This document shows positions 8,575-54,384 of a DNA stretch of 64,000 nt, piece by piece (the first letter of the stretch is position 1; every line of letters begins with the position of its first letter). The notes beneath the pieces were generated by a model that ran no database searches, was not told the DNA's origin, and saw nothing but the letters and a program-made list of their open reading frames with translations. A program made the position numbers and the translations under genes. Origin of the DNA: Pseudomonadota bacterium (lineage in GTDB: Archaea; Thermoplasmatota; SW-10-69-26; JACQPN01; JAJPHT01); assembly GCA_021325135.1 (NCBI GenBank), contig JAJPHT010000030.1, forward strand, positions 96,001 to 160,000. Reading direction: 5' to 3'.

Positions 8575-8654
8575 TCGAACCCGTGCAACCCCGCCCAAAT
8601 CGAAGATGCTCGAAACGACCCGGATCGCCCTCAACCCACGACATGCGTGAAACC

Positions 8655-8802
8655 ATGACCATCCGCATACTGCTCCTACTGGCCGCAGGCCTCACCTTCG
8701 CTCCCTTGATTTCCTTCTTGCCGTCCGGCTACGCGGTGGACCCGACCGGCAACGACGCCGGCACCGGCCACGACGCCGGCGAGAACGAGGCTGAGGCGGT
8801 AG
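8655..8802 (+). pseudogene. 5' fragment of a secreted protein (signal peptide plus NDAGxGxDAG motif), apparently truncated
   Basis: MTIRILLLLAAGLTFAPLISFLPSGYA-VDPTGNDAGTGHDAGENEAEA is protein-like. After ~8800 the frame is only the antisense shadow of the giant ORF. Confidence 0.55.
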
Positions 8803-11800
8803 TCGCGGGCCGTTCCGCTGGGCAGGTTGAGCGTGACGCTTCCCGTCAAAGGCCCGTTCAGCATGGTCTGGGCGCTGGCCTCTTGGGAGAGGAAGTCGTC
8901 GTTGCTGGTGTTGATCCAGGCCACGACGAGGCCATCGGCGGCCGCGTTGAGGGTGAGGCTTGCGGCGAGGCTGGCCTGCGTTGGCGTGCCCGCGCTGCGG
9001 ATGGGACTGACCCACCGGGCGCTGGATGTGCCGGGGGCAATGCGCAGCACGCCTTGGCTCGTGTCGATGCTTTGCGCGGGGCCGTGCTGGTTCCAGTCCG
9101 ACTGGTTCTGGACCACCCACGTTTGCCGCGGCAGGATGAGGCTGCTGGTGGGCGCGGCGGGCGCGTGGTGGTCGTACTGGCCGGGGCTCGTGATCCACTC
9201 GCGCCCTTTGAGCTTGCCTTGGGCTCCAGCGGCGAGGCTGAGGTACGTGTCGCGGTATCCCGTGCGGTCGGTGCTCGTGTAAGTGTAGGAGAGGTTGAAG
9301 GGGCTGGCCTGGTTGGCGAAGGACTGGTTGAACGTCCACAGCGACGTGCTCCCATCGTCGTAGTCGCTCAGGTGGCCCGAGACGCCTTGGAGTGGGCCTG
9401 CGCTGAAGTCGAGCACGCCATTGTCGCTCAGGTCCACGAACGAGTCCGCAGCCGTGACGACGATGCTCTGGGTCTGGGATCGCAGGATGAGGGTTCGGGC
9501 GGGGTCGATCTTGGCGAAGGCGTAGTGGACCCGTGCGCCGGTGAGTTGGGCGGGACCGGGATCAGGCCGGATGGTCGTGGCGCCGTGCGTGTCGCTCGAT
9601 TGGAGCGTGTACGAGGCGCTGCTCGTGGTCCAAGCGGTCCAAGGGCCCCAGGCGGTACGGTAGAGACCCGTGGCGGGATTCAGAGGCGTCAGCGGGAGGC
9701 TCGTGGTGGAGGTGACTTGGGCGGTGAAGGGGTTCGTCAGCGTGCGCAGGACGCTGAGGCCGTTGAACTGGTTGGTGGGCTCGCCACGGACGTTCTTGAC
9801 GCTGACGCGGGAGTAGTCGCTGTCAGGGGCGTTGCCTGGTGAGTCGTCGAGGCCTGAGTTGTAGTCGGTGTCGCTGGGATTGTCCGTGTCGTTGCGGCTT
9901 TCGACGTATTGGGCCACGTAGAGGCTTTTGTCGATGTCGAGGCGGTTGGGCGAGTTGAGGTCGTTCCCGAGGGCGTTGCTCGTCAGGCTCGAGGTGCCAT
10001 CAAACACGCGGAGGCTGTACCCCCAGTTCCCGTCGTACGTCGCGCTGTGCGTGCTCGTGTACGTGGACGTCGCGCTGTTGGGCACGGGGAGGCTCGTGGT
10101 GAAAAGGCCCGTGGCGGGATCGACCCCGACGGCGGATTGGTTCGCGAAGGCATCCGTGCCGTACTCGGTCGTGCCGCTGCCGCGATAGACCATGACCGTG
10201 ACGTTGCGGGCGTACCCCAGGGAAGCGTTCGGGTTCTTCACGCGGTACGCAGCGCCGTCCGCATGGCGCAGCAGGCCGCCCACCTGAACGACCTCGCCGG
10301 GCTCGTAGGCCTTGAATGGGGTCGTGGTGTTGCCCGTGATGTTGGTGTCGAGCCAGTCCGCCTGGATCGCGCGACTGACCTGCCAAGTCTCGTTGTAGGG
10401 GTCGGGCGTGGTCTGCGTGCCGTTGGGGAGCTGGAAGCTGAGGGTCCACGATCCGGCAGGGTCGGAGGACGCGTGAAGGAGGTCCGCGTTCGGAATCAGG
10501 CCTCCCGTGGTGGTCCGGGTGAGGACCTGCGTGGCGAGGGAGGGGCGCGTGAAGATCACTTGGACTTGGGTTCCGTCGGGGGCGGGCTGGCCGCGGCTGC
10601 CCCAGAGGGTGGCGTTCGCGCGCTGCGTGTCGCCCGCCATCAAATCGGCATAGGGCGCGACGGCGCCGCGGTAGGCGAGGGTGCTCTGGGCGAGCCAGAC
10701 CTTGTTGCTCACGTCGAGCAGGTTCGGCGTCGTCGCGTTGGGCGCATCGGGGAGGCTCAGGCCGGTTCCGCCCGTGGTGGTCGTCGCGCGCTGCGGCTGG
10801 TCGCCAAGGAGACGAATATCCGGGCTGTCCAAGGCGGGGGATGCTCCGGGTGTCAGGAGGACGTAGTGGTAGTCCAAGGGATCGGGGGCCAGGAGCGTGG
10901 TGGCGTTGTAGGTGTCGGGCTGGCCGGCGAGGCTCGCGGTGCAGGGCGCGCAGGCCACATCGCCAGTCTGGTTGGTGGCGCTCTGGACGGGGTCGTTCGT
11001 GCCGAAGCCGCTCGCGAGGAAGATTTGAACGGTCGTGTTGCGCAGGGGGTTTCCCCAGCGGTCCTTCAGGGTGGCGCCCACTTGAAAGGCGTCCGTCGTC
11101 GCGTACGCGGGCGTCGTCGCGCTGGCGCCCACCTCGCCAAGGACTTGGGGGGATCTGGTGCTGCCCAACAAGATCTGGTTGTCGATGTAGTAGGAGGCGT
11201 TGGTGCGCTGGCCGGTGTCGGGCCGCGTGATCATCGTCTGGAATGCGAGGCTGGTCGCGTTGTACGCCGGGGCGCGTTGGGTGTTGAACTGGACCCACGG
11301 CTGCAGGCTGTTGAAGGGGAGCTGGCGCGCGACCAGGACAGTCTCCATGATGGGTCCTGGAGACGCGTTGGGAGCGGTCTGGACTTGGTAGGTGAGCGTC
11401 TTGCTGGTCCAGGCGAGCTCGCCCCAGGCGAGCGTGTTGTTGAACGCGTCGGCCTCGCGGACCAAGAGGCTCTCCTGGGGCATGAGCACGGTGTAGTTCC
11501 ACGCCGTCGTGGACGCGTCCGGCGTCATGCCCAGCCACATGAAGGTCGCGCTCGTGCCTGTCGTCCAAGCGTAGCTGCTCAGGGCGAAGCCGGCGCTCCC
11601 AATGGGGTAGACGGCGGTCTGGGGGGCGGTCACGATGGTGACGAACGGGCGCAGCGTCTCGCCCTCGGCGCTCAGGAGCGCGTACGAGAAGGTCGCGTCC
11701 TGGGAGGTGCTCGTCTGGGCGTCTTGGACCATGACGCCCAGGAAGCAGAGGACTTCTTGCTGGTAGCTGACGAGCTCGACCTCGACGTTCAGGCTGGACG

Positions 11801-14800
11801 TCGCCGCGGTGATCTGCTTCATGGTGCCCACCACGGCGTTGGTCGTGGGGTTGACGGGGATGGCGAAGACGCGACCATCGTTGGTCGTGGCGGCGACGAG
11901 CCAGTACCTACTGCGCGCGTCGTAGGCGACGCCGTAGGCGTGCGTCATGCTGCCACTGTTGGTGGGCGTGTCGGTGCTCCGGTCGAGGATGTCGAACGTG
12001 CCCGTGCCCAAGGGGTTTCCGCGCTCGTCGAGGAAGCGGCCGCTCAGCTTGAGCGCCGTGCCCGTGCCGACGCGCTCGGCCGTAAGGAGGAACTCGCCGT
12101 TGCCGTAGACGACGTTCGGGTTCTGGGTGGCTCCCGTCGTGACGGTGAGGACTTGGCCCACCGTCGTGATCGCGTCTTGCGTGGGATCGTAGAAGGTGAC
12201 GCTGATGCCCTGGTTCGTCTGTCCGTAGTAGAGCACGATGCCTTGCTTTCCCGCGATGGCGCCCAGGCTCTGGGTGCACGATCCGCAGAGGGAGCCGACG
12301 TTGAAGCTGCGCACCAGGTTGAGGTTCGTGTCGAACTGCTTGAGGTACCACTTCTGGTCGCCCACGAGCTGATAGACGAGATAATAGGCGTCTTGGGGGC
12401 TATAGTAGGTGAGGCTGAGCAGTTGGCCCGGCGTGCCTTCCTGGTTCTTGTTGATGAGGACGACCCTGCTCTGCTGGATCTTCATGTTCGCGTCGTAGGC
12501 GCGCGCGTAGACACCGCCCGCGTCGCCGAAGAGGAAGATCGTCCGGGATCCGGTCTGGAGGGGCGTCTGCATGGTGCCCACGTCGCCTTGGCTGCTCACC
12601 GTCTGGACGCTGCCGTCGAAGGCCGTGTTGGCGGTCTTCATCCAGTTCTGGTCGTAGTCGGGCTGGAGGCGCCAGGGAGTCGTCTCGGTCTGGATCTTGC
12701 CACAGATGGACTCTCCGCGAGTGATTTGGCTTTCGGGTTGGGCGCAGCCCTCGTCGGCGTGGTACGTCTCGTAGGAGGTGACGTTGGCCGTGGTGGTGAG
12801 GTATCCGGCTTGGCTGTTGCCGTAGCTGCCGGCGGGGCCTTGGTCCCAGTCGCTGTTGCTGGTGCTGTCGATCTGATTCGTGGCGCCATTGCGCCAGGCG
12901 GCTGTGATGGCCATGCGGTAGGAGCCCGCGTAGGCCAGGTTCGCGGCGGCGGGGCCCAGCGTGTTGGCCGCGTTCTTGTTGATCCACCATTGCGTGGTGA
13001 GCGTCTGCGTGCTCGTGCCTCCCACGCCGGTGACGCTCTTGTACGAGATGCACCCCTGGGTTTCGCAGAAGGGGATGGCGAATTGGCTCGTGGTGCTGAC
13101 CTGGCTGGTGGCGAAGTTGAAGAAGGTCAGAGTCGCGTAGACCCAGTCCGTCGTGGCGTTCTGGAGGGTCCGGTTGCCCGTGGGTCCGTTGCCCCAGACC
13201 AGGTAGAGCGTGAGGTCCACGCCGTTGGCGGTGAGGCTCGTCGTCTCGGGGTAGAGGTAGAACTTGGGCGTCGCGCCCGTCGTGAACATGGATTGACCGG
13301 ATTGGGGATTGCTGGTGGGATCGTTCTGGTCGCGAGCACGAAGGGTCACGCGGTAGTTGTTCACGCCGTCGGTGCTCGTCGCGATGGCCACGCCGGGGTT
13401 GGAGAGACCGTTCCCAAAGGGGTTCCCAGCCTGGCTCAAGGTGGGCATCCCCTGGGGCGCGCCAGTGACGCGCAGGGTCACGTTGCGCAGGTCGCTGGGG
13501 CTCAAGAAGTCGCGAGATGCGACGCTCACGGCGCCCGATTGGCCCACGTCGCCTTCTCCGGCGAGGCTGACTGCGCTTACGCCGTACGTGTAGGCCTGGG
13601 GGTCCCAGTTGGGCCGGGCGTCGCTGTAGCTGGTCGCGTTGATCGTGGCGATGAGGGTTTGGGGATTCATCCGGTAGAGCCGGTAGTAGAGGATGGGCAA
13701 GCCACCATTGGCGGGAGGCGTCCATGTCAGGTGCACGATGTTGTCCGGGCGCACGCTCGCCACTGGGGTGGGTGCGTACGGGACGCGGGCGGGCGTCGCG
13801 TTGAGCCAGGCAAATCCGCCTTCGCCTTGGGCGTTCTGGGCGGCGAGCCGGTACGTGTAGGTCACGCCATTCAGGAGAGGCGCGTCCTGGTAGGTGGTGG
13901 CCGTGGGGGGCAGGGTGGTCAGGAGGGTCCAGTTGAGACTCGTGCCACGGTAGAGGTTGAGCTGGGTGATGGGGTTCCGACCGTCCCAGGCAGGAAGTAT
14001 CCAGCGCAGGCTCAGGGCGGCGTCCTGGACGCGGGCGCTCAGGTTCCGGGGCGGCGTGGGCGCCACGCCGCATCCCGCGCAAGGCAGGACGGCGACCTGG
14101 GCGCTGGGCGACGCGTTGTGGAAGGAGGAGTCGTAGGCCACGAGGCGGTAATAGGCGGGCTGGGCGTTGGGGATGCCCGCGTCGGCGTAGCTGATTGACG
14201 ACCACGAGAGGTTCGCGACGGGCTGGCCCAAGTCGAAGCCGGGCACGGCGCCGCGGTAGACGTAGTAGCCAGCGAGGCTCGTCTCGGGGTTGGCAACCCA
14301 GGTGAGGAGCGCGCCCCCATCGCGCGGCACGGCCGCAAGGCCGCTCACCGCGCCCGGGAGGGGGGGAGCATTCAGCGTGGGCGTGACGGTGAGGGAGTTG
14401 CTGGGATCTCCCGGAGTGCCTGCGAGGGCGGCCACCTGGAGACTGACCGTGACGCCGTTGGTCAAGCCGTTGAGCGTGAACGTCGTGTTCGTGCCCCCCA
14501 CGAGGGCGACCTGCGCGCCGTTCTTGAGGACCGCGTAGTTCGTGACTGGGGTACCGCTTGACTTGCTGGGCGGGCTCCAGGCCAGATCCACGGCGCCGTT
14601 GCGTGGCTGGGCCACCAGGAGGTTGGGCGAGTAGGGAGCGAAGCTGGGCGTGTCGGTCACGAGGTTCGAGGGGGCTGATTCTTGGCCGTTGGCGAGGGTC
14701 GTGACGACGAACGCGTAAGCTTGGCCCTTGACGAGGTTGTTGACGAGGTAGGACTGGTTCGCGCCGCCCGTGTCACCCACGAGCACCCGGCTCGTGCCCG

Positions 14801-17800
14801 TCAGGCCGGCGTACACGTTGTAGTCGGTCGCCGCAGGCCCTTGCGAATTGGGCGTCCAAGAGAGTTGGATGCTTGGCGAGGAGCCGGAACCGGCCGCGTG
14901 GGCCAGGGTGGGCGCGATGGGGGCGGGGCCTGCCACGGGCATGACGCCTTGGGAGGGGCCGAGCGGCCCCTCGCCGGCCGTGTTGACGGCGCTGATCGCG
15001 AAATAGTACGACCCTCCGTTGGTCAGTCCGTTGGCGCGGAACGTGGTGTTGCTGCCGCCCGTGTCGCTCAGGTTGACCAGGAGGCCCGGGTTGGATCCGG
15101 CGTAGATCACGTAGTCGGTGGGCGCCGCGCCGCCCGTGCTCGCGTTCATGCTCCACGCGACATCGACGAAGCCGTTGCCCGGCGAGAGGGTGAGCGCGAC
15201 GGGCGCGCCCGGGGGCATGGCGTGGGGCATCGCCCAGAGGGGGCTCGTGGGCGGGCCTTCGCCCGCGCCGTTGAGCGCCGTCACTTCGAAGGCGTAGGTC
15301 TGGCGGTTCTGGAGGTTGTTGACGTCGTAGGAGGCGTTGAGGCCGCCCGTGGCGCCCACGAGGCTGTAGGTCGTGCCGTCCGTGCTCTTGTAGACGCGAT
15401 ACGTGGTGACGCTCTGGCCTGCCGTCGTGCCGTTCGCGGCCGCCTGGGGCGCGTAGGAGGGACCGAAGGGACCCACGCGGCTCTCGAGGAAGACGACGTG
15501 GTTGGATGCGTCGAAGAAGTACGTTCCTGGTGCGAGGCTGGAGAGGCTGCCCACGCTCGTCGGGGCGGGCTCGCCGTAGACTTGGGCCGTGGAGAGGGTG
15601 GTGAGCTTGGGGCTCACGGGGATGCGGTAGATGCCGTTGGCGGATTGCCAGGCGTTGGGGCCTCCGAAGGTCGCGCTGAGCGGGCCGGGGGTGAAGACGT
15701 TGGTCTCGCTGCTTCCGCTCTGCGAGCGTTGGACGCTCGTGCTGACGAGGTAGTTTGGAGACCACGTGACGCTGATGCCGTTGGTGGGCACGCTCAGCGC
15801 GAGGCCGCTGTCGCCGATCCATTCCAGGGTGGCCGTCAGCGTCCGGGGCGTTCCGGGCAAGTTTCCCACCTGCTTGCTGAACATGGGATTGAACCACTGG
15901 CCATTGATGTTCATGTCGAGTTGACAGAAGAGGCACCCGTTCGTGTTGAACACGACGGGCGTGACTTGGTAGGAGTTCGCGTCGTTTGGCGTCGTGAGCG
16001 GGTTGCTGGTGAGGTAGGCGTCGGGCGCGTACGTGCTGCTCCAGAGGTTGAGGTAGAACCCCGTGTTGCCGTCCTTGGTCCAGCCGCACGTGTTGTCCGC
16101 GCAGGGGTGCGTGATCACGTAGTAGTTGGCCCACGTGGCGGCACCTCCCGTGGTGTCGGTGCCGTAGGTGCAGGTCGCCGTGTTGGTGCCTCCGATCTTG
16201 AGCGCGTACGTGTTCGCGGAGCTCAGCGTGGGCGGGGGGTCGAAGACGAGGGATGCAAAGCCGTCGGACTGGAGCGTGAGGGGCGAGCTGGTGGCGATGG
16301 GCGTGGTGGGCTGGCCGCTCGAATCGGTCGCGTAGAGCGTCCACGCGCCTTGAGTCAGGCCGGCGCAGCCGGTGATGCTCAAGTCGATGCGGTCCACGCG
16401 GCTGGTCGTGGTGACTTTGAAGCCGGCGTACCGCGCGTTGAGGCCGTTGGGGCCCGCGTAGCTGGTCGGCAGCGTCTGGGCTGGACCGGGGGCACGCACG
16501 TCGGTGGAGGGGATGCTGGGGGGCCACCATTTGCTCGCAGCTTGGTTGATCGTGGTGTCGTGTAGGCTGACGAGGAGGCCGCAGTATTGGCCCACGTCGT
16601 TCATGAGGCCCGTGGTGGGATCTTTGGAGACGCAATGCCCAGCGAGGTTCGCTGTTCCCCCGCTCAAGCTGTCCATGAGGCTCACCTTCTCGTTGGCGCA
16701 CATGCGCGCCGAGGGCAGCAAGCGCAGCGCGTAGGTCACTCCGGGGTTGAGCGGGACGGCTCGGGTGAAGGTGGCTGGGAGCCCCCATGGGCTGTGGGTT
16801 CCCACGATCCAGGGCGTGATGGCGTCCGAGGCGCTGTCCGCGAGCATCGTGGTGCCCTGCCAGAGTTGGATCTCGAACCACTCCGTCTGCGAGCAGGCGG
16901 GGGTGAATTGGAGTTCGAAGCTGGCCTGGTAGAGGAAGCCGGAGGTGGGCACGGTGAAGGATTGCTGGAGGTAGGTGCTAGGGATGCTGGCGAGGCCGGT
17001 CTCGATGTTCTGCGCCGTCTGGAGGGTCGTGGCTTGGCTCGCCGGTTCCCACGTGAAGGCTGCGGCGTTTTGGTCGGGCGCGAGGGAGTCGCGCACGCTG
17101 GCTGCGTCGGTCGTGCTCGTGGTCGTGGCGCCCACGGGAGGATCCCAGGTGAGGTTGATCGTGCCGCTTCCCGGGACGGCGCGCAGGTTGCCCGGCGCGG
17201 CAGGGGGTGAGCCTTGGCCCGCCACAAGGGGCACGAAGAGGAGCACGACCATGACGCCCATCGCGAGTCCCAGGAGGCACGTGGCGAAGGGGCGCGCGGG
17301 GGCGCGCTGGCAGGGTCCCCGGGAGGGCTTCGCCGTGCGTGGGCGCGCCAGCAAGGCTGCGAGGGCGACGACGAGGAGGGCGCCGGGAGCAGACGGGCCC
17401 GGGATGAGGAAGGGGCGCTTGAAGACGCCTTGGGCGACTTCCTGGGTGCTCGTGGGCGGCGTGACGATGGGCCTCTCGGGGGCGTGGTACGTCACAATGA
17501 TCCAGTTGTGCTGGGGGGCCGCGGGGTCGGTCTCTTGGTTGCCCACGGCGTCCGTGCTCGTGCTCTTGAACTCGTACGCGACGCCGTCCAGCGCGTTGGT
17601 CCACGCGGCGCTGCCCTGCCTGGAGGCGTTGGCCACGAGGAGGGTCCAGTCGCCCAGGCCCACGGGGCGGCCCCAGACGGTGACGCCCGTGACGAGGTTC
17701 TGGGTGTCGAAGGCGCTCCAGCCCACGATGATGGTGTTGGGCGCCTCGAGGCTGACGCTGGCGTAGAGGACGCTGGTGGGCGCCGTGGTGTCGTTCGTCG

Positions 17801-20800
17801 TGAGACCGGGGATGTAGAGCCGGACGCTGCGGGTCAGGTTCTCGTTGATCGCGGCCAAGGCGTCCTGGATGTCCTGCGTCGTGTTCTGCCCCAGGGCCGC
17901 CTGGACCTCTCCCAGCGTCGCCTCCAGGCGCAGCCCCGTGGCGTCCATCCGGTCGATCAGGCGCGTCGTGTTGCTCGCCACGTCCCCGCGCAGCGCGGCC
18001 AAGGCAAGGGCTTCATCTTGGCCGAATTGGGCTTGTTGGGCGAGGATGCTCTGAATCGTGTCGGCGATGGTCGCATTGCCCAGGCTTCCGACGCGCTGGG
18101 AGAGGAGGGCCAAGGCGTCCAGCGTCGTGCTCACGTTCTGGCCCACAGAGGATTCGACGTCCTGCGCGGTGCGCAGGAGGGCATCCGCCAGGCTCGTGTT
18201 GACAAGGCGGAGGCTGGCGCTCAGGTTGAGCGTGGCGTTGATGACGTCGTCCTGGCGGGTGCGCGCGTCGCCCAAGAGCGCGGCCTCCGCGCTCAAGACA
18301 GTCGCCACGGCGGTCTGGTTCTGGGATTCGATGCTGGCGAGGATGTCGAGGGTGTGGTTCACGATCTGGTCGCTACGGGCGTTGAGCTGGGCCAGCACGG
18401 CGACCTCTTGGGCGGTGAGGTGTTGCGTGATGCTGGTCGCGTTGGTCTCCAATCCGTCGAGGATGTCGAGCTCCCGCTGGTAGACGGCGTCACTGCGGTT
18501 GTCCACCTGGGCCAGGATGGTCAAGGCGGCGAGCGTCACGCTCTGGTTGAGGCTCGCGGTGCCGAGGGTCAGGTTGGCGAGGATCGTCGTGCTGCGGTTC
18601 GCCAGGTCGTCGCTGCGGGCATCGACGCGCGCCAGGACGGTGAAGGCCGTGGTCGTGAGGGCCTCGTTGGTCTGGGTCGCGTTGGCCGCGATGCTTGCCA
18701 GGATGGCCTCTTGGCGCGCGACGAGGTCGTCGCTGCGGTTGTCCACCGCGGCCAAGATGCTCAAGGCGCGCTCTGCAAGGTCCTGGCTGAGCGTGGCGTT
18801 GACGCCCGTGAGGGTGTCCAGGAGGTGGAGAGTCTGGTTGACGAGGGCGTCGTCGCGCTGGTTCACCACGGTGAGGACTTGGAGCGTCTGGGCGCTCAGT
18901 GTGCTCGTTGTGGCGCTGGCGTTCAGGGCAATGCTCTGAAGAATTTGGTCCTCCCGCGCCTGGGCCTGGCTCGACTGGTTGGCGAGACTGCCCAGGACGT
19001 CCAGTTCGAGGCCCACGAGGGACTGGTTCTGCTGGGCCTGGTTGGTGCTCAGGGCGGAGAGGATCGCCGTGGTTTGGTTGAAGGCCGCGTCTTCCTGGCC
19101 CGCCAGGCTGGCGAGGATGCTGAGGGCTGTGGCATGGAGTGAGTCATTCAAGCCCTGGCGGGCGTTGGTGAGGTTCTCCAGGAGGCTTGTGCTGCGGAGG
19201 GCCAAGTCGTCCGAGCGCGCGGAGATGGTGGCCAGGATGCTCACGGCGTTCGCTTGGAGGCTCGCGTTGAGCGTCGTGTTGGTGGAGGCCAGGTTGGCGA
19301 GGATCGCCTCGGTGCGGGCGACAAGGTCGTCGCTGCGGTTCGACACGGCCCCCAGGATCAGGAGTCCTTGGGCCGCGAGGCCGGCGTTGAGGGTCGCGTT
19401 TTGCGCGGTGAGATTGCTCAAGAGCGTGGTCGTGCGCAGGACCAGGTCGTCGCTGCGGGCGTTGAGCTGGCCCAGGATCAGGGTCGCGTTGGAGGCGACG
19501 CTCGTGCTCACCCCCGTCAGGTTCGAGAGGAGCAGCGCCTCTTGGCCTACGACCTGGTCGCTGCGCGCGTTCACTTGAGCCAAGAGCGTCGTGAAGTTGT
19601 CGCGGAGGCTCTCGTTCAATCCGCCTTGGTTCGTGACGAGGAGGTTGAGCAGCGTCGTGGTCCGAAGCACCAGGTCGTCGCTGCGCGTCGTCACGTTGCC
19701 CAGGATCAAGAGCAGGTTGGACTCTGCTTGCTGGCTCAGGTTCGACTGGGCGCTTGTGATGTTGGCCAGGACGAGGAGGGTCTGGTTGTAGACAGCGTCG
19801 CTGCGCGCGTCCACGTGGCCGAGCACCTGGGTGGTCTCGTTGAGGAGCTGGGCTGTCAGGTTTCCTTGGAGTGTGGTCACGTTGGCGAGGACCCAGAGGG
19901 TCTGGTTGAGCGCGTCCTGCCCCCGGGCGTCCACGTCGCCGAGTACCTCTTGGAGGCGGGTCTGGAGGCTCTGGTTGAGGCTCGTGAGGTTGTTCAGGAT
20001 TGTCGTGTTGGTGAAAGAGAGGTTCGCCTGGACCTGGGCGAAGCTCGTGTTGATCTGCGCCTGGTTAAAGTCGATTTTCCCCGAGAGGATCGTAATGCTC
20101 GTCCCCAAGGACGAGTTCGTGTTGTTGAGCGTGGCCCAGACGAGGTTGACCTGCTGCTGCGCCGAGAGGTTCGAGTTGGAAATCTGGGCGCTCAAGGCGT
20201 TGACCTGGGACTGGAGGCTCGCGTTGAGGTTCGACACCTGGAGCGTGACGCCCTGGAATTGCGTCCCCACGCTCGCGTTCATGTTGCTGATGTTCACGAG
20301 CAGGCTCGACGATTGGTTCGTGACGTTGGTCTCCTCGTTGTGGATCTGGAGGGACTGGAGCGCAAACTGGGTCGAGACGTTCGTGTTGGCGTTGTCGATC
20401 TTCGATCCCAAAAGGAGAGTCTGCGTCTGGAGGGTCGCGTTGGTGTTGTTCACGCCGAACCAGACCTGGTTGACTTGCGAGGTGATGTTCGCCTCCTCGT
20501 TGCGCACGAGGAGCGAGAGAGAATTGTACTGGTTCGAGACGTTGGTGTTTTGGTTGACGATCTGGCCCATGATGGCGTTGGCTTGGCTGGCCACCGAGGC
20601 GTTCGTGTTCTGCACCTGGCTCGTCACCGTGGAGAGCTGTGAGCCCAGGCTCGCGTTGGTGTTGTTCACCACGAGGCCCACGTAGCTGACCTGGGCCGTG
20701 ATGTTCGCGTTGCCTTGGGCGAGGCTGACTTGCACGCTGTTGAGTTGGGTGCCCACGCTGGCGTTCGTCTGGTTGAGCAGGCTCGTCACGTAGTTCGTCT

Positions 20801-23800
20801 GCGCCGAGAGGTTCAGGTTCGTGTTGACGACTTGGCCGACCAGCCCGTTGTACTGCGATCCGACGGTGGCATTCAGCGTGGAGAGGTTCGCGCTCACCAG
20901 GTTGACTTGGGCCGACACGTTGGTCTCGACGTTGGCGACGTGCGCCTGCAGGAGGTTGACCTGCGACTGGAGGCTGGTGTTGAGGTTGGAGAGATTCACG
21001 AGAACCGTGTTGGTCTGGCTCGAAAGGTTCCCGTTGAGGTTCATGACTTGGGACTGGAGCAGGTTCAACTGCGTCGTCCCTGAGAGGTTCGCGTTCGAGA
21101 CGGCTTGGCTAAGGAGGTTGTACTGCAGCCCGATGCCCGCGCTCGCCCCCAAGTACAAGGCGAGGGCTTCCGAGTCGGTGATGGGGCGCCGGTAGACGTG
21201 CAGCTCGTCGAGGGTGCCATGGAAGCCGGCCTGGTGTCCGCCCACCGGGTCCGGGTTGGTGGCCTCGCCGCCGCTGCGCGCAAAGCTGGCCGTGATCACG
21301 CCGAGGGTGACGAGGCTCAACGTGCTCGTGCCGGCCGGGGCGCCGTCGATCCAGAAGCTGGCGCCGCGCGTTGCGTTGTTGTACGAGGCGGCGACGTGGT
21401 GCCACTCGTTCGGGGCCAAGCCGCGCGAGGCCCACGCGGTCTCGTTGCGCGTCCCATCGGCCATCGTGAAGGCGGGCGTGTAGTTTCCGGGCCCCAGGCC
21501 GAACCAGTACCCCGCGGGCGCGTTCTTGCCCTTCGCCATGGTTGTGAAGATCGTCTCGCCCAAGGAGCCGCTTCCTGTGGGCAAGACCCACGCGCTGAGC
21601 GTCTTGTTGGAGAGGCCCGTGAAGTCGGAGGCGGGCGCGTAGTCGAGCGTGTCGTTGACGCCGTTGAAGAGCAGGCCGGTTCCGTAGCGGCCCTGGACCC
21701 AGGTGGGCGCGCCCCAGCTCACGGTGCCGTGGCGCCCGTTCGCGGTCGTGTCGTAGGCGGTCGTGCCTGTTCCTTCGTCGTAGGCGTACTTGGCGACCGT
21801 GTCGGTGGGGGCGAGGGGGTCGTTGGCGTTGGCGAACTGGTTGATGACGCGGGCCAGGAGCGTGTTTTCCTGCTGCGAGAGGCTCGCGTTGCTGTTGAGG
21901 ACCTCTGTCAGGATCGCATTTGTCTGGTTGACCATGGTCGCATTCGCCGCGACGATTTGGAGGCTCACGGCGTTGGTCTGGTTCTGGAGCGAGGCGTTGG
22001 TGCTCGCAATCTGGGCCGAGAGCAGGTTCGATTGGTTCAGGACCGTCCCGTTGAGCGTCGAGAGTGTCGTGACGAGGACGTTGTATTGGGTCGAGACGTT
22101 CGTGTTCTCGCTCACGATCTGCGCGCTCACCACGTTCGTGACGTTGGTGAGATTCGCCTCCGTCGTCCGGATCTCCCCATAGAGGAGGTTCGATTGGTTC
22201 ACCAGCGTTGCGTTGCTCATGGCGATTTGCGCCGCGAGGGCGTTGGTCTGGTTGAGCAGGGTGAGGTTCTCGCTTGTGATCGCCGCGCTCAAGGCGTTGT
22301 ACTGCAAGGACAGGTTCGCATTTTGGCTGACGAGCTGGGCCTGGAGGGTGTTGGTTTGGTTCTGGAGGCTTGCGTTCGTCGTGCTGATCAAGGCCGAGAG
22401 CTGGCTCGATTGGTTCACGACCGTGGCGTTGGTCGTCGCCACGCTCGAGAGGACCACGTTGAACTGGCTCGTGATGTTGGCGCCTTGGCTGACGATCTGG
22501 CCCTCGACGTAGTTGGACTGGTTGGTGAGATTCGACTCCGAGACCCGCACCTGCCCCAGGACGAGGTTCGTCTGGTTGCCCACCGTCGCGTTCACGCTGC
22601 TCAGGCTCGACAAAATGAGGTTCGTCTGGTTCTGGATCGACGTGTTGCTCGTCTGGATTGCCGCGCTGATGGCGTTGAACTGCGCGGAGAGGTTGGTGTT
22701 CGTCGAACTGATGCTCGCCTCGATCTGGTTCGATTGGTTGGCCAGGCTGAGATTCACGTTGCTCACCTGGGCGCTCAACGCATTCGCCTGCGACGATACC
22801 GAAGCGTTCAGCGTCGTGATGTTCGAGAGCACGAGGTTGAACTGCGTCGAGACGTTCGCGTTCTCGCTGACAACCTGACCAGCCAGGAGATTGGACTGGC
22901 TGGAGAGGTTCGCCTCGGTGGTCCGGATTGTTCCGGTCACCAGATTCGTCTGGTTCGTGGCGTTGAGGTTCGCCGAGAGAATCTGGGCACTGAGAAGGCT
23001 CGTTTGGTTGAGCAGCGTGAGGTTTTCGCTTGTGATGCTCGCGGCAAGCACGTTGTACTGCGCGCTCAGGTTCACGTTCGTGCTGGCGATTTGAGCCGAC
23101 AAGCTGCTCGTTTGCGCTTGGAGGGACGAGTTGAGCGTCGTGATGTTGGCCTGCAACGTGCTCGACTGGTTCTGGATCGAGGCGTTCGCGCTCGCCACGC
23201 TGGCCAGAATGAGGTTGAACTGGCTCGACACGTTGGCGTTCTCGCTGACGATCGCGCCGCTCAGGAAGTTCGACTGGTTGGTCAGGTTCGCCTCGCTCGT
23301 GCGAATCTGGCCCAGAACGAAGTTGGTCTGGTTGCCCACCGTGCTGTTGCTGGCCGCGATCTGCGAGAGTATCGCATTCGTCTGGTTGACGAGGGTGGCG
23401 TTGCCGCTCAAGACGCTGGCCACGAGGCTGTTGTACTGCGCCGTGACGTTCGCGTTCTGCGTGACGATCTGGGCCTCAATCGTCGTGGTCTGGTTGCCCA
23501 ATGAGGCGTTGGTGCTCGCCACGCTGGCCTGGATGGCGAGGGTCTGGTTCGTGATGGCGGACTGCGCATTCTGCACGAGCGTGTTCGTCGCGGCGAACTG
23601 TTGGACGACGCTTGTGTTGAGATTGACGACCTGGGAGCTGACGAGGCTCGTCTGCGTCTGTACGCTCGAGTTGGTGTTGTTGACCGTGAACCATATGAGG
23701 TTCGCTTGGCTCGACAGGTTCGCCTCCTCGTTGTGCACCACGAGGCTGAGGCTGTTGAACTGGTTCGACACGTTGGCGTTCTGGTTCTGGATTTGCGCGA

Positions 23801-26800
23801 GGATCTGGTTGGCCTGCGTGACCACCGTCGCGTTGGCGTTGTTCACCGCCCCCAGGACCGTCGAGACTTGGCTCTGGAGGCTCGCGTTGGAGTTGTTGAC
23901 GAGGAAATCGACGTAGTTGAGCTGCGCGCCGAGGCTGGCGTTCTGGTTTGCGATGCTCACCTGGACGGCATTCAGTTGCCCAGCGAGGGAGGCGTTGGTG
24001 TTGTTCACCAGCGCGCCCACGATGTTCGTCTGGGCCGAGAGGTTGGCGTTGGTGTTTTGGACCTGGGCGGTGAGGCTGTTGTACTGGTTGAGGACCGAGG
24101 AATTCAGGTTCGAGACGTTCGCGCTGAAGGCCGAGATCTGCGTGGTGAGGTTCGTTTCGGTGTTGGTGACGTGGGCCTGGAGGAGGTTGGCCTGCGTCGA
24201 GAGGTTGGCGTTCAGGTTCGAGAGGTTGACCAGGACCGTGTTGGTTTGGGCGGTGAGGTTGGACTCCGAAGTCCGAATCTGGGACTGGACGAGGTTCACC
24301 TGCGTCTGGATGCTCGCATTGGACGTCGCGATGCTCTGGCTGAGGAGGTTGACCTGGTTGAGCAGGCCGGGGCTGACGCCGACTGCGTCAGCCTGCATCT
24401 CGGTCGGGTTGAGGCTGCGGTCCCAGACCTTGGCCTCGTCGATCATGCCGTGCCAGCCGAAGATGGGGGCGCAGCAGGCCAGATCCCCCACCGTGAGGCC
24501 GTGCTGGCCGAAGTACGTCTCGTTGGGCGGCGCCATGGGCCGGGGCGCGCTGGGAGCCAGGCTTTGGGCGTCTTGGGCGCCGTTGAGGTAGAGCCGGAGG
24601 CTGGACTGGTCGTAGACCAGGCCGACGTGGTACCACGCGCCGGGCTGGAGTGGGGTCGCGCCTGTGGCCGTGAGCGTCGTGGTGTTGTCGAGCCAGACTC
24701 GACCCTGTAGTTTTGGCGTGCCCCCGGCGACGTAGAGGCTGAACCCGCCCCAGGCCCCGCTTGAGCACGTGCAGTCCCGGTCGTTGCCCAGGACGTACCA
24801 CGCGGAGCTGCCCAGGCTCTGGGTCCAGTTGTCAAAGTCGGCCGCGTAGATCCAGGCGCTGGCGCTGAGGCTCCCGCTGTTCAGGGTGAGGTTGCTGGGC
24901 GATTGGGCGTACTGGCTGATCCCGTGCTGGCTGATCGCGCGCCAGGCGACGTCCTGGGGGCCTTCGGCGAAGTTGTAGGCGCGGATCTCGTCGAGCCGGC
25001 CGATCCAGCCCGCCTTGTTGCCCCCCTGCGTTTCGGGCAGGACGGCCTCCCCGCCCAAGAGCGCCCGCCCGCCCACGCCCGGCGCCAGGCCAAGGGTGCC
25101 CGTGGCAATGGGCGACCCGTTCACGTATAGGGTGGCGGTGTTGGTGGCCTGGGCGTAGACGGCCACGGCCTGCTCCCAGGTGTTGAGGGGGAGAGACGCG
25201 CTGGCGGTGACGTTGGACTCGGCGCCCGAGCCGTCGCTGGTCACGAAGCTGAGCCGGCCGGCGGCGTCGAGGCCGAACCAGTAGCCGGGGCTCGTGCCGT
25301 CAGGGTAGTTCTTCGTCGTGAGGATCGTGGCGCCGTTCCGGTCGAGCCCCTGGGGGTAGATCCACGCCTCCAGCGTCCGGTCGCCCGTGAGGCCCGAGGT
25401 GAAGGGCGCGGTGGGGAGGATGACCTCGTCGTTGGCGCCATCGAAGGTGGCGGCGTAGCCGTACTTGCCGTGGACGTGGCTCATGTTCGCTTGCGGGTTG
25501 TACGACCCGTCGCGTCCCAGTTGAGTGCTGTCGTTGGCCGCGCCACCGTAGTGCTCGTCCAGCCGGTACCACGCAACGAGGCCCGTCGTGTTCACGTTGG
25601 GCGCGAGGGGCTGGAGATCGAGCGAGCTGCCCACCCGGCCGCCCGCGACCTCGACGGCGCCCCCCTTGAGGATCAAGTCGTGACCCTTGCCGCTCTGGTC
25701 CTTGGCCAGCGTGTTGTTCGAGAGGTCGTCGAAGGGTGCGTAGAGCGCCGCGCTCCCGTCGATGCCGCGCTGGATGGCGAATTCGTTGAAGATCCGCGCC
25801 AGGATGAGGTTCGTCTGGTTCGCGATCGTCGCATTCGAGTTGACGATGCTCACCAGCAGCGAGTTCGTCTGGTTGAGCATCGTGCTGTTCTGGCTGCTGA
25901 TGTTCAGGAGGATCGTGTTGGCCTGCGAGGTGAGGTTCGTCTCCTCTTGTGAAATACGTCCCGAGAGGAGATTAGTCTGGTTGACCACCGTGCCGTTGAC
26001 GACGCTGAGGTTCGACAGGACGAGGTTGAACTGGGTGGAGACGTTCGCGTTCTCGCTGACGATCTGCCCGGCGACGAGGTTGGTCTGGTTCGTGATGTTG
26101 CCTTCCGTCGAGCGGATCGTCGCTGAGATGAGGTTCGATTGGTTCGTCGCGTTGAGGTTCACGCTGGCCAGTTGCGCCATGAGCAGGTTGGTTTGATTGA
26201 CCACCGTGGCGTTGCTGCTCGTCTGCGCCGCCACGAGGGTGTTGTACTGCGCGCTGAGGTTGAGGTTCTCAGCCACGATCTGCGCCTGGATCGCGTTGGT
26301 CTGGTTCACGCTCGTGCTGTTGGCGCTGGAGATCTGGGCGCTCACTTGGCTGGTTTGGCTTGTGAGATTTGTCTCGGTGTTGCGTACCTCGCCGTAGATG
26401 AGGTTGAACTGGCTCGTCGTGCTCGTGTTGGCGTTCACGATGAGCGCTGAGACGAGATTTGCCTGGCTGACCACCGTGCTGTTGGTGTTGTTGACGCTTG
26501 CCCAGAGGGCGAAGGTCTGGTTCGTGATGTTCGTCTCAGTGTTGTGCAGGCCGAAGCTGAGGGTGTTGAACTGCGTCGTCACGTTCCCGTTCGTCGTCGC
26601 GATGTCGCCCCTGATCAGGTTCGCCTGGGTGCCAATCGAGAGGTTGGTGTTGTTCACCGCGCCCCAGACTATGTTGACCTGGTTCTGGATCGAGGCGTTG
26701 GTGTTCACGAGCGTCGTGGCCACGCTGGTCACTTGCGCCTGGAGACTCGCGTTGACGTTGCTGAGGTTCGTGTTGACGACGTTGATCTGGCCGGTGAGCG

Positions 26801-29800
26801 AGGCGTTCTCGTTCTGCACTTGGGCGTTGAGCAGGTTCACCTGGGTGAGGATGGCCGGGCTCATGCCCAGGGCGTCGGCCTGGATCTCGGTTGGGCTCAG
26901 GCTGCGGTTCCAGGCCTTGACTTCGTCGAGCTTGCCATGCCAGGGGTACTGGCGGGCGTTGCTGCTCAAGTCGCCCACGGTTGCCTTCTGGTTGTAGGGG
27001 TAAGTCGCGTTGGGCTGGACCAAGGGCGTGTAGGTGCCGAAGGGCGTGGTGGCGGCCTCGAGGGTGCCGTTGAGCCAGAGGCGCAGGCTGTAGCCGTCGT
27101 ACGTGAGGCCTGCGTGGTACCAGACGCCGGGTACGAGGGTCGTCGTGCCCACGGCGGTGACTTGGCTCGTGTCGGTGGTGCCCGTCCAGGCCCAGCCTTG
27201 GAGGTGGGCAGGCGTGCCGGTGGCGTAGAGGCCGAAACCGCCGTAGCTCCCAGCTGCGGTGGCACAGCAGGAGCGGCCGTTGCTCAGGATGTACCAGTTG
27301 GTCGCGCCGCCCTGTTGGCGGTTGAAGTCGTCCGCCTCGACCCATGCGGCGGCGCTGAGCTGGCCACTCGCGAGGCTCAAGTTGCCCAGCGAGTACGCCA
27401 TGGTATTGGGGCTGGTCGTGGTCGTGTTGGGCAGGTAGAGGGCCGCGCCGGCGTGGCCTTCGGGGGTGAGACTCGCGTTGCCCGCCAGGTACACGGTGTT
27501 GTTCTTGCCCGCCAAGTCCGGGACGCTGGACGGGGTGAGGTTTCCATCGGGCGAGTCGAAGCTGGCGTACAGGTTCGTGCTGCCGTCCACGCCGTGCTCG
27601 GTGGCGAACTGGTTGGCGATGCGCGTGAGGATGAGGTTCGTCTGCGCGACGAGGCTCAGGTTCGTGTTGCTGATCTGGACGAGGACGCCGTTGAATTGCG
27701 ACTGCATCGAGGCGTTGAGGTTCGAGATGGTCAGGGCGATGGCGTTGGTCTGGTTGGAGACGTTGCCGCCCAGGCTCGTGATCTGGGCTTGGAGGTAGCT
27801 CGACTGGTTCGTCAGATTGAGCTCCTCGTTGTGCACGGTCACGTTGAGCAGATTGAATTGTGTCGAGAGGTTCGTATTCGAATTGACGATCTGGGCTTGG
27901 ACGGCGTTCACCTGGGTGGACACGTTGCTGCCCGTCGAATTGACGCTGAACCAGACCTGGCTCAGTTGCGTCGAGATGTTGGTCTCCTCGTTGTGGATCG
28001 AGACGTTGAGCAGGTTGAATTGGTTCGACACGTTGGCGTTCTGGTTGAGGATCGCCGTCTGGATCGCGTTCACTTGGGAGAGCACGCTGGCGTTCGTGTT
28101 GTTGACGCTCGCCCAGACGGCATTGACCTCGGACTGGAGCGTGGCGTTGGTGTTGTTCACCTGGAAGTTCACGTAGTTGAGCTGCGCGGACACGTTCGCG
28201 TTGGCCTGCACAATCTGGACCTGGACAGCGTTGATTTGTGAGCCCAGGCTCGCATTCGTGTTGTTCACGAGGCCACTGATGCTGACGTACTGGCTCGACA
28301 GGTTCGCATTCGTGTTCACGATCTGCGCTTGGAGCACGTTCGTTTGGCTGGTGATCGTTGCCTGGGCATTGCTGACGTTGGCCTCGATTTGGTTGAACTG
28401 ATTCAACAGGAGCGGGTTGAGGTCCTGGTAGAGGCCGTACACTTCCGCGTCGGTGAGGGTGCGGTTGTAGACCCAGACCTCGTCGAGCCCCCCAAACCAG
28501 GCGTTTGAAGCGCTCAGGGCCCCGCTCGTGCCCAGGGTGATGAGGCGGCCGCCGTTGGCGTCGAGCCCTCCGGGCGCGGGGACGCTGGCCACGAGGCTGC
28601 CGTTGATGTACACGCGCAGGGTCGCGTTGTCGTACGTCATGGCGGCGTGGATCCAGGCGCCGCTGGAGAGGTTCGCGCCCGTGCTGCCCGTGACGATGGC
28701 ACCGCCGATGGTCTGGGCCTTGTAGTTGAGCACGCGCGTCGTGCTGCTCGCGTAGAAGGTGGCGTTGTGCTGGCCGAAGAGGCCCCAAGGGTGAGCGAAG
28801 CTCCAGCCCGAGCTGGCTGGATCGAGGCGCAGCCAGCCCGCGATGCTGAAGCTCGTGGAGCTCAAGGTGGAGACGTTTTGGCTGGCCCACTCGTTGCCAT
28901 TGAAGCTCAGCGCGCCCCCCACGTGGCCCGCCGTCCAGTTGCCTAGGCTCGTGGCCACGAGGGATGCGTCGTTGTGGTACGGGCTGGCGTCGTGAACGAC
29001 CGTTCCATTGGCGTCGTCGAAAGGGTACATGGCGACGACGCTGCTGTCGATGGGCGGCGCGACGCCGTGGTTGAGCACCTCGCTGCGCAGGATGTTGAGC
29101 TGCGATTGCGTCGAGACGTTGAGGTTGGTCACCTGGGCGCTGAGCGCATTCACCTGCGTGCCCAGGCTGGCATTGGTCGTGTTGATGAGTGCCCCGATGG
29201 TGTTGAACTGGCTCGACACGTTCGCGTTCTGGGTCACGATGCTGGCCTGCACCAGGTTGGTCTGATTCGTGAGGTTCGACTGGGAACTCGCGATCATGCC
29301 CGAGAGGGCGTTGAACTGCGCCTGCGCCGAGACGTTGAGGTTTGAGATGCTCGCGCTCACCAGGCTGATTTGGTTGAGGATCGAGGCGTTCGTGTTGTTC
29401 ACGCTCGCCCCGACTTGATTCACCTGGGTGGCGATGCTCGCGTTGGTGTTGTTGACCAGGGTCGAGAGCGCGTTCACTTGGGTCGAGACGTTCGCGTTCT
29501 CGTTGACTATCTGGGCCTGGACGAAGTTGAACTGGGTTCCGACCGAGGCGTTGAGATTGGAGAGGTTCGTGCTCACGCCTGTGATTTGCGTCTGGATGCT
29601 CGTGTTCGTGTTGTTTAGCAAGAGGTTGGAATAGACGATTTGGCTCCCCAGGCTCGCGTTGGTGTTGTTCACGAGCTGCTGGGCGTAGGCGAGTTGGTTC
29701 GTCACGTTGGAATTGAGGTTCACGAGGCTCTGGGAGACGCTGGCGACCTGCGTGCTCACGTTCGTCTGAAAGTTGTTGATGTTCTGCTGGATCATGGCCG

Positions 29801-32800
29801 CCTGGGCCGAGACGTTCGTGTTGGTGTTGTTGATGCCCGCGTAGATGCCCAGGATCTGCTGGCCGACCCAGGAGTTGGAGGAATTAAAGAGCGCCGCGAT
29901 GGTCGTGGTCTGCTGCTGGATCGTGGAGTCCTGGTTGTTGATGTGGATGCCCACGTTGACTTGCTGGTTGTAGACCTGGCTGGCGACGTTGTTGATCAGG
30001 AATACGACCGAGAAGAGGTCGTAGCCGCGAATCCAGATGAACTGGTCCTGGTTGACCAATAGGCTCGCACTGGCGCTCGCGCCGGCAAGGACTTCCGTGA
30101 GAAGGCCGGCGCTGCTGGCCGTGCTGCCGGTGAGGAAGACGCGGACGTAGCGGACATCCTGGGGCGAGAAGGAGAGGACTTGCCGACCCTGGTAGTCCAC
30201 GTTGGCGCTCGTGCACACGCCCCCAGCGGACCCCGGCATCGTGGGGCCCACGCGGGTAGCGAGCCCGCCTCCTGCGCAGCCGTTCTGCGTGCTGTCCCAG
30301 AGCAGGCTCCATCCGTTGTGGACAGGGTCGGCGCTGGTCTCGACGCGATAGCCATAGAAGCTGCGTGCGTCGCCATCCCAAAGGTGGAGCGTCAGGTTGG
30401 TGAGCTTGGAGACACGGTTGAGATCCAGCGTCCCGAAGTAGGCCAACGTCTCGCCCTGCGCGGTGGCGTTCGCGGCGCTGCAGTAGGCCACCGTGGATTC
30501 AGCGCCATCCAGGCACGCCGCGCCGTTGCCGGTCACGCCGTTGCCGGGCACTCCCGTGTTGGCGGGCTGTCCCGTGCAGGAAAGCTGGAGGCAGAGGCTC
30601 CCGTCGCCGGCCGTGTCCTGTGCGGGGCTGGGCATCCAGTAGGGCTGCGTGCTGCCGGTGTAGTTGTACGCGTAGTCCACGAGTTGGGGTGGTTGGAGGT
30701 TGGCGTCGTAGATGTCCGTCTGGAGCGCGTATGTGTCCTGGGGGACTTCGAGGCTCGTGATCTCCCCGGGCAGGACCCACGTGGCGTACGTCTTCCCGTT
30801 GGCGCTCATCTGGAGGTAGGCCGGGTCGGTCTGCGTGTTCTTGATCTTCACCTGGTAGAGCGTGACGCCCACGTCGAGAAAGAGCTGGGGCTTCACGACG
30901 TTGAGCACGCCGTACGTGCTCGTGACTTGGCTAAAGGGGCAGGCCTCGCCGTTCGCGCCGGTGCAGGAGTAGCTGGCCAGGTCCGGGGGTGGCCAGACCA
31001 TGTGGCCGAAGTAGTCCTTCACCGCGATGTAATAGGTGTTGCCCACGTAGAGCGGCACGCGGCCGCCCACGACGCGGCTGCTTTCGGTGATGGTGGGCGT
31101 GGTGCTCACGTACACCTTGTAGAAGTCGGGGTTGAGGCCGAAGCCGGTGTTGTTGTCGAAGAAGTTGTAGTAGATCACTCCGTCCGCGTACACCTGCGGC
31201 ACGGGGCCTCCAGGGCTCGTTGTGCTGGTTGGGGCGTTGCCAATGGCGACGGGCCAGCTTTTCTTCGCCAAGACGCCGTTGACGGTGTCGGTGAAGCCGA
31301 TGGTGACGTAGTAGTTGCCCGGGGCAAGGTACGTCGTCGTCATGATGCTTAGGAAGTTGCCGTTCGTCGCGTTGTAGGAAGGGCCCACGCCGACGTTGTT
31401 GGGCAAGGGCGTGCCGTTGGCGTACGTGACCGTCATGTTGGTCATGTAGCCGCTGATGGGCCGATTGTTGACGTCGAGAATCAGGCCCTGGGCCATGATG
31501 TAGTCGCCTGACCGGACGAGGCCGGGGACCGTGATGTTGAACTGCGTCCCCCAGGTGAGGTTCACGCTGCCCATGCTTTGGAGCGTGGTCTGGTTGTAGG
31601 TCACGACGGGGCCGATGTAGAACGCGTTTTGGTCGGACTGAAGCGCCTGGGAAGAGGGCTGATAAGTAGGGCTGTTGTAGGCCGTGTAGACGCCGTTCTG
31701 GGTGGGCCATCCCGGGCAGGCGCCGCAGATGTTCGCCGACATGGGCGCCATGCTGACGCGGATGTCGGTGCTGCTCTCGGACTTGACGTAGGTGAAAACC
31801 TGGCCGGTGGTGACGAGGAGGTTGAAAGGGGAGGAGCAGAGCCATGTGGGCGATGTGGCGCTCGTGGGCACGGTGATGGTGCCAGTGGCGAGCTCCTTGC
31901 CCCCCACGCTGGCGCTCAATCCCCAGCCGATGGTGTAGGGTGCGTTCCCCGTGGCGATGACCCGAGCATTGAGGCACACGTTGGTGACCGTGTAGCTGGT
32001 GCTCAGGTACGGGTAGGCGTAGGTCCACAACATGCCCTTCAGGTCGCTGAACGAGCAGCACAGGTAGTTGGAGCCCGCGAACCACGCGCCGCCGGTCGCG
32101 TTCCACGTTTGGGTTCCCACCGTGAAGCTGTTGGGCCGGAGATACACGTTCAGGCCGGCCGAGTCGAATCCCATCTGCTTCTTCGCGAGGTTCGTGGGGG
32201 ATGAGGTGCCCGCGTCGGTGTAGGCGCCATCGGCATATACGCCGCCCGCAATGATCCCCTTCGCGTTGATGCTCGTGGGCAGTTTCAGCAGGGCGTCCGT
32301 GGTGACGTAGGGAAGAGTCGTTGTGCCGCTGAAGGCGTCGGATTCGCTGCTGAGACCCACGGTTCGCGTCTCGAAGTTGGGCACGCTGAACTCGGCGTGC
32401 CAGGTAAAGCTGGATCCCAGGACCGTGTCGTCCAGGGTGGGGAAACTTGTGGTCGTGTCGTTGAGGACGTAGCGCGACTTCATCGTCGTGAGCGGGTAGT
32501 AGGAACCCAGGCTCGTGTACTGTCCGGGGGGAAGGAACGTCCAGGCGCCGCCGGGGTTGAGTTGGACACCCACGCTGGTTCCGGCGGGCGGGGATTGGGT
32601 GGGCCAGACGCGCGCGTCGAGGAGCGAGACGAGGTTCTGGAAGTTGTGGATGTTGCTATTCGTTTGGGCGTACGCGGTGGTCGGATACGTGCCGTAGTAG
32701 ACGCGGAGGAAGGCGTCCTCCGTCGCGCTCTGGCCGGTCACGTTGATGGGCGTGACGTGCGTGCTCGTCGTGCGATGGTACGCCAGGCAGTTGTGGTAGG

Positions 32801-36328: not shown

Positions 36329-36339
36329 CGGGGCACGTC

Positions 36340-39009: not shown

Positions 39010-39042
39010 GCCGATCCGCGCGAAGCCTACTCGAAGTCCTTC

Positions 39043-53198: not shown

Positions 53199-53200
53199 GG

Positions 53201-54371: not shown

Positions 54372-54384
54372 GTGGGGCCTCCGG

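Follow-up and report, generated by a model that had tools for sequence, protein, structure and literature searches.

How many proteins does a gene make when its reading frame runs through a C-terminal membrane anchor and straight on into a second signal peptide? The question is raised by a giant open reading frame (ORF) in the window analysed here, a 64,000-nucleotide stretch of DNA from a soil archaeon of the Thermoplasmatota (C46:96001-160000 of genome G000). The genome is a metagenome assembly, 94% complete with 5.6% contamination, and its L15e protein is 87-95% identical to those of Thermoplasmata/Thermoplasmatota MAGs. The initial annotation took the ORF for a polyprotein, translated as one chain and cut at a fixed 1:1 ratio into an anchored stalk protein and a released second protein, and offered the recent loss of a stop codon as the alternative.

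A comparable arrangement has been described in Haloferax volcanii, where two once separate genes have been joined, in a strain-specific manner, into HVO_0405 (PMC6098224, PMC7157517, citing Abdul Halim et al. 2017). The same reports place a PGF motif, a transmembrane (TM) helix and a basic cluster in the middle of the protein, which ArtA still cleaves into N- and C-terminal fragments (PMC6098224, PMC7157517).

Here we argue, on balance though well short of certainty, for a lineage-specific in-frame fusion of two neighbouring, translationally coupled genes, whose product is probably still split by signal peptidase. The existence of separate-gene homologues decides the origin as a fusion, while a second, distant fused homologue leaves room for selection.

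Results

One intact frame from the first signal peptide to the second ectodomain

The giant ORF is made up of two halves, with features on the minus strand as follows (residues are numbered from GTG 35000).

8676..34940, minus strand: fused giant ORF, 8,754 aa from ATG 34940 or 8,774 aa from GTG 35000
34851..34940, minus strand: N-terminal signal peptide of half 1, top site of a home-made PSSM (12.9 bits), cleavage predicted after aa 50
17406..34850, minus strand: ectodomain of half 1, with a head region, LamG (Pfam PF13385) and a long N/Q/S/T-rich stalk
17505..17792, minus strand: anchor-proximal Ig/FN3-like domain, from the alignment, kept in all stalk homologues
8793..17216, minus strand: half 2, FN3 repeats (PF00041) followed by a region homologous to separate giant proteins, 3'-truncated

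Translation is likely to start at ATG 34940, directly before the signal peptide, and the frame has a codon score of 0.33 per codon and a GC3 of 0.90. The signal peptidase PSSM was trained on 109 signal peptides of the host, a set built with a floor of 16 aa and spanning 17-32 aa, and is partly circular; by its scores the half 1 cleavage site is of the same kind as those of the stalk homologues P0004 and P0007. The half 1 ectodomain carries 283 N-x-S/T sequons, and its head block is 48-54% identical to those of P0004, P0005 and P0007. The insert that starts half 2 (window 15220-17213) is itself weakly similar to the half 1 head (blastp E 0.03).

The sequence around the junction was checked against assembled contigs rather than raw reads. 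A 96-kb Logan contig (probable source run, depth of about 20) agrees with window 8000-19500 with 0 differences and 0 gaps; this run is possibly the DNA's own source, and thus counters mis-assembly but gives no independent support. Runs from another study match exactly over 17034-17310 and 17420-17656, independent pieces that leave 17311-17419 uncovered. P0001, a separately called 534-aa fragment, crosses the junction at 100% identity, and near-identical strains in other assemblies (P0002, P0006 and P0028) have the frame intact where it is seen. The single uninterrupted frame, as a signal-peptidase polyprotein would have it, supports the translation of one chain that had been proposed.

An anchor, a basic linker and a second signal peptide in succession

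At the junction the frame passes through three elements, all on the minus strand.

17346..17405, minus strand: C-terminal anchor of the former gene 1, IPGP motif and short TM helix, aa 5866-5885
17289..17345, minus strand: basic cytoplasmic linker of 19 aa, aa 5886-5904, with six R/K and no D/E
17217..17288, minus strand: h/c region of the internal signal peptide, aa 5905-5928, V-A-G before Q, predicted cut after G5928 or A5927

This succession, recognized at aa 5866-5928 by the initial annotation, is borne out by the sequence itself, by hydropathy and by an HMM built from the host genome's own C-terminal anchors. Among the 47 best matches of that HMM in G000 (at least 11.5 bits), 46 lie within 7 aa of a stop codon; the anchor of the giant ORF (14.5 bits, rank 41) is the sole internal site, falls within the range of the true C-terminal matches and by this genome-wide profile belongs to the host-type PG/PAPG anchor family. 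A VPG motif is conserved at the same place in the alignment of P0004, P0005, P0007 and P0009. No 19-mer of the ORF is more hydrophobic than one in the internal signal helix (KD 2.75), and an FN3-type start comes directly after the V-A-G/Q site. As read by hydropathy and the PSSM, the junction thus has an internal h-region, small residues at -3/-1 and a basic loop inside. A TM-basic-TM hairpin between two long soluble regions is found in no other G000 ORF over 400 aa, and the layout is more than chance.

No stop triplet occurs in any frame between 17345 and 17251, and the source-run contig agrees; the two other frames stay open until about 16,980 and 16,738. The earlier statement that no ATG precedes the second h-region also stands, and extends to in-frame GTG and TTG, yet two in-frame ATGs that it passes over lie within the helix (M5914 at 17261 and M5917 at 17252) and an in-frame ACG lies upstream in the linker, at 17336. 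The linker carries no trace of either a stop or an ATGA overlap from which the event or its age could be read. The homologues read across the junction lie at >99% or <55% identity, and none between about 45% and about 99%; the contigs of the X6 relative (90-97%) do not resolve this stretch.

Predicted processing of the junction

A5927 (7.7 bits) and G5928 (7.4 bits) are the best internal signal peptidase sites of the giant ORF by the PSSM, which makes the proposed V-A-G site at -3/-1 plausible. These scores lie below the 5th percentile of the training set (9.6 bits) and near the N-terminal sites of the family (8.6-14.1 bits). By the same PSSM the internal site of P0004 ranks second, behind its N-terminal site. 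At position +1 of the host signal peptides, Gln takes second place by frequency (14/109). G000 encodes a homologue of archaeal signal peptidase I, which at 50.5 bits scores just under the curated cut-off of 51.85, as well as three genes of the exo/archaeosortase family (PF09721). The best of these proteins, the one of the three that was typed, passes the exo/archaeosortase signature, fails the ArtA cut-off and is closer to exosortases.

The suggested PG(F)-TM-basic sorting signal holds in the order of its parts, with motif, TM helix and basic cluster following each other at aa 5866-5904, but not in the motif, which at the junction is PGP and matches neither TIGR04126 nor any other NCBIfam model. 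Because PGP fails TIGR04126, we do not file the junction anchor as PGF-CTERM; it works like one but is not a member, and is absent from the five TIGR04126 matches in G000. About 46 proteins of this genome end in a PG/PAPG-TM-RRR anchor that is mostly missed by TIGR04126 and is possibly an unnamed sorting signal.

Homologues of the stalk are mostly separate genes

Distant stalk proteins were collected by an exhaustive phmmer search and further ones by profile searches; the search of longer proteins spanned 441-2,000 aa, and giant fused forms were reachable through the exhaustive phmmer search only. Eight of the nine stalk homologues stop just after the TM helix and a basic tail.

Split stalk homologues: P0005 (L020, ERZ1761205), P0007 (L021, SRR30642447), P0009, P0014, P0021 (L036), P0022 (L038), P0023 (L039) and the G026 copy

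The ninth, P0004, is fused to an unrelated partner, and the fused state is thus found in 2 of 10 family members rather than across the family. In L020 and L021 the stop codon of the stalk gene overlaps the start of the next gene by 4 nt, and in L036 the next gene begins 10 nt after it. Upstream of the stalk, L019-L021 show synteny with the window. On the other side of the junction, the last 650-790 aa or so of half 2 match, at 33-36% identity, separate downstream giants of 2,875, 4,117 and 4,613 aa that all begin with a Met of their own and a signal-like stretch; the homologue of this C-terminal region lies directly behind the stalk gene in L021, and behind two intervening genes in L020. The halves therefore occur as separate, adjacent genes in relatives (L021, L020), as a lineage-specific fusion predicts. 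For the first 2,100 aa or so of half 2, generic FN3 relatives only were found. G000 itself contains five anchored genes (of 46) that overlap the next gene by ATGA or GTGA, that gene starting with a hydrophobic and mostly signal-like segment, which makes suitable precursors of such fusions common.

With eight of nine stalk homologues stopping at the anchor and the relatives of half 2 being separate genes with their own Met and signal, a designed polyprotein with a released second protein finds no support, and the loss of a stop codon is the better account of the origin of the fused gene. A stop-loss origin leaves cleavage possible, and the two readings are not mutually exclusive.

Wider searches, all limited by sensitivity, yielded nothing beyond near-identical fragments and generic FN3/Ig matches: at the DNA level among 30 relatives, with single halves among the proteins of the class and phylum, in metagenome contigs, in genome contigs by profile and among proteins by word-based search, and in viral contigs, where no link to a virus was found. 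The ESM Atlas gave sub-0.9 leads only.

A second fusion at the same boundary

P0004 (L019) is 34% identical over the matched stretch. Past its anchor it continues into a 32-aa basic linker, a second signal peptide and a beta-helix protein of about 380 aa, which is 41% identical to a separate gene behind the L020 stalk and is not homologous to half 2. P0004 still has the former start codon, an ATG in frame that is overlapped by a TGA shifted by one frame (an ATGA relic, L019 16118-16220), and its linker carries a run of seven G; together these put P0004 one base from the L020 layout. The fusion, a singleton known from one contig, could stem from recent slippage or from an assembly error; its G7 run is a candidate slippage switch or, again, an artefact of assembly.

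The fusions of P0004 and of the giant ORF are here taken as separate events, on the grounds of non-homologous partners and unlike linkers and not of a tree: the phylogeny of 8 stalk proteins does not reject a clade of the two fused forms (p-AU 0.159; 4% of bootstrap trees). Sharing the same boundary, the two make a compact natural test pair.

Half 2 has lost its C-terminal part

Homology of half 2 to the L052 and L021 proteins ends at window 8784 and 8781, respectively, about 1,000-1,200 aa short of the ends of these proteins, and the missing part of the L052 protein was not found in G000.

8676..8792, minus strand: deletion junction and tail, about 38 aa antisense to a truncated plus-strand gene (start 8643 or 8655)

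The junction is head-on, the facing plus-strand signal-peptide gene being cut after about 48 codons (window 8643-8792), and its sequence is identical in the source-run Logan contig. The full-length L052 protein closes with a short stalk followed by a TM helix and basic tail, and the C-terminal TM anchor of the L020 and L052 giants is absent from half 2. Judged by its predicted C-terminus, the second protein of the family is anchored in at least one member read to its end. Half 2 of the giant ORF lacks an anchor solely through the loss of about 1,000 aa at about 8,790, and its release, proposed with the polyprotein reading, would follow from this deletion instead. The substitute tail holds a moderately hydrophobic 19-mer (KD 1.94), which might tether half 2 weakly.

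Discussion

Origin and fate of the fused gene

Under the fusion account, gene 1 would have encoded a LamG/stalk surface glycoprotein with a sortase-type PG-TM-basic anchor and gene 2 a Sec-exported surface protein, with both the stop and the start now gone, most simply through one small deletion over their overlap. The ribosome would now make one chain, the first signal of which would start Sec export of half 1; TM1 would then stop transfer, the basic linker would remain cytoplasmic, and the old signal peptide would restart export. Cleavage by signal peptidase I after G5928 or A5927 would restore something close to the ancestral pair of proteins at 1:1. The PG motif may in addition be a target of an exo/archaeosortase, by analogy with HVO_0405, in which case the third product would be a small hairpin peptide. 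We infer that the fused gene is expressed, and that it is tolerated rather than selected.

Selection for the fused state would mean that the family repeatedly fuses its stalk gene to the downstream neighbour so as to fix their co-export at 1:1, with separation by the host's signal peptidase. Two of ten members are indeed fused at the same boundary to non-homologous partners, both with an intact signal and -3/-1 site; no stop relic is left in the linker, and its in-frame GC3 is 0.94, compared with 0.61-0.62 for the L019 linker and the L020 tail. All three codon positions of the linker are nevertheless GC-rich (0.76-0.94), which leaves GC3 little power to discriminate, and ATGA coupling already links the translation of the two genes. 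With eight homologues split, half 2 truncated in this strain and P0004 a singleton perhaps owed to a slip or an assembly error, we regard a selected polyprotein as unlikely. The broader idea that an undescribed family of large mobile elements of Thermoplasmatota repeatedly turns coupled stalk-partner pairs into polyproteins, cut by host sortase and signal peptidase to give fixed 1:1 surface assembly, with exchangeable partners and possibly switched by slippage in the linker, is likewise one to which we give little credence.

Decay offers a different perspective, in which the fusion is one of several lesions of an ageing element and the chain is uncut at the second site or unstable, half 2 being tethered by the hairpin or degraded. 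The loss of about 1,000 aa and the anchor from half 2, by a deletion that truncated the facing gene as well, would fit such a history, as would the low PSSM score of the internal site; the uncleaved form of the HVO_0405 fusion is described as unstable (PMC7157517). It is nonetheless a doubtful explanation for a 26-kb open frame that has a GC3 of 0.90, contains no other break and is retained in P0002, P0006 and P0028 where seen. Moreover, a list of 40 differences to the X6 relative (39 of them in half 2; a best-supported and therefore biased subset) has 25 in third positions and none that creates a stop.

Half 2 could also be made mainly from a nested in-frame start, beside the read-through form: from M5914 or M5917, with a signal of 15 or 12 aa, or from the near-cognate ACG at 17336, which would give a canonical 40-aa signal with basic n-region, h-region and c-region. 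The old ATG is retained in L019, and some signal peptides of related elements lack a basic n-region (the 2,875-aa gene of L020), which lends some colour to the ATGs present within the helix. The hydrophobic stretch begins 9 codons before M5914, however, fitting a start further upstream; a 15-aa signal would be shorter than those in the host set (17-32 aa, with 16 aa as the lower limit when it was built), and no more than a weak GGGA precedes M5914, with nothing SD-like before the ACG. Internal initiation therefore seems improbable to us. Finally, an assembly or sequencing error hiding a stop or frameshift, a concern with a metagenome assembly checked by contigs, has next to no probability given the Logan contig, the exact matches from another study and P0001, and is rejected: the contigs of four runs show no indel or joint at 17200-17420.

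Relation to known systems

The fusion account has its closest described case in HVO_0405, with which the giant ORF shares a fused origin and an internal PG-type motif followed by a TM helix and a basic cluster. HVO_0405 differs in that it is exported by Tat, has a PGF motif and carries a NifU domain further downstream, and the passages concerned mention no second signal peptide (PMC6098224, PMC7157517). The giant ORF, in contrast, has PGP, is of Sec type, continues into a second signal peptide and an ectodomain of about 2,800 aa, and its processing is predicted only. The split pairs of L020, L021, L036 and G026 have the same stalk family, anchor-proximal domain and anchor as the giant ORF, but stop after the anchor and start the next gene with its own Met. 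Another prokaryotic fused gene, that of FbcH of Bradyrhizobium japonicum, reportedly encodes a cytochrome b/c1 precursor that is split at an internal sequence resembling a signal peptide, giving two membrane proteins; unlike the giant ORF it is said to serve a respiratory complex, with cleavage experimentally shown and functionally required, and to have no sortase-type anchor and no part in a surface adhesin.

The comparison with viral envelope polyproteins that had been drawn for this locus is apt in its hairpin logic of anchor, short basic cytoplasmic loop, internal signal and peptidase site, which flaviviruses, pestiviruses and bunyaviruses share. For SFTSV Gn/Gc, an internal signal peptide in the envelope polyprotein is described in part of one report (PMC5113920). 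Those polyproteins are processed in the eukaryotic ER and are conserved across whole families, whereas the family of the giant ORF is fused in two of ten members: it works like a signal-peptidase polyprotein but fails the test of conservation for membership.

In the literature covered, to which subscription journals mostly do not belong, we found no archaeal surface-protein anchor followed by a second Sec signal. Gene fusions of this kind are known; the second signal peptide, the giant size and the parallel fusion at the same boundary are new here. Processing of the fused product is likely, as far as prediction from its sequence can tell. If it does occur, archaeal Sec and signal peptidase I can cope with an internal signal that follows a 5,800-residue ectodomain and a sortase-type anchor, and such fusions would be nearly neutral, which would explain their recurrence in archaea and also how viral-type polyproteins arise from coupled genes. 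For annotation, the locus is a warning that some giant archaeal ORFs are two proteins.

Genomic context

The first 157 kb or so of C46 have a GC content near 0.66, as compared with 0.72 in the remaining genome. This region includes a ParB-like gene (window 54385-55644) and, at its edge, a 580-aa ORF (window 58270-60012) with tyrosine-recombinase-like motifs recognized by eye and no Pfam/PHROG match; we infer that the low-GC island of >155 kb is an integrated element. No Rfam or tRNA match was obtained within the window, so no described recoding element is implied.

Among the split homologues, P0021 (L036 1-9860) and P0022 (L038 2-1069) follow extended series of tiny, unannotated ORFs, an arrangement reminiscent of viruses or plasmids. 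A membrane protein gene of 158-201 aa precedes the stalk in L019 (9493-9975), L020 (7660-8136) and L021 (9123-9728), with no counterpart at window 35006 and no tblastn match in G000. Also within the island (C46:1-157000) are an ORF for a secreted protein of 3,629 aa (71190-82079) and, at 52974-54479, a paralogue of the beta-helix gene.

Upstream of the stalk, a cluster of membrane-protein genes is conserved between the window (35006-48653), L019 (1-9975), L020 (391-8136), L021 (5682-9728) and L050, at 25-45% identity across elements and with almost no Pfam/PHROG match. As a side observation, the cluster would represent an undescribed surface or transfer apparatus of Thermoplasmatota elements, and without Pfam/PHROG annotation it may outrank the junction in interest.
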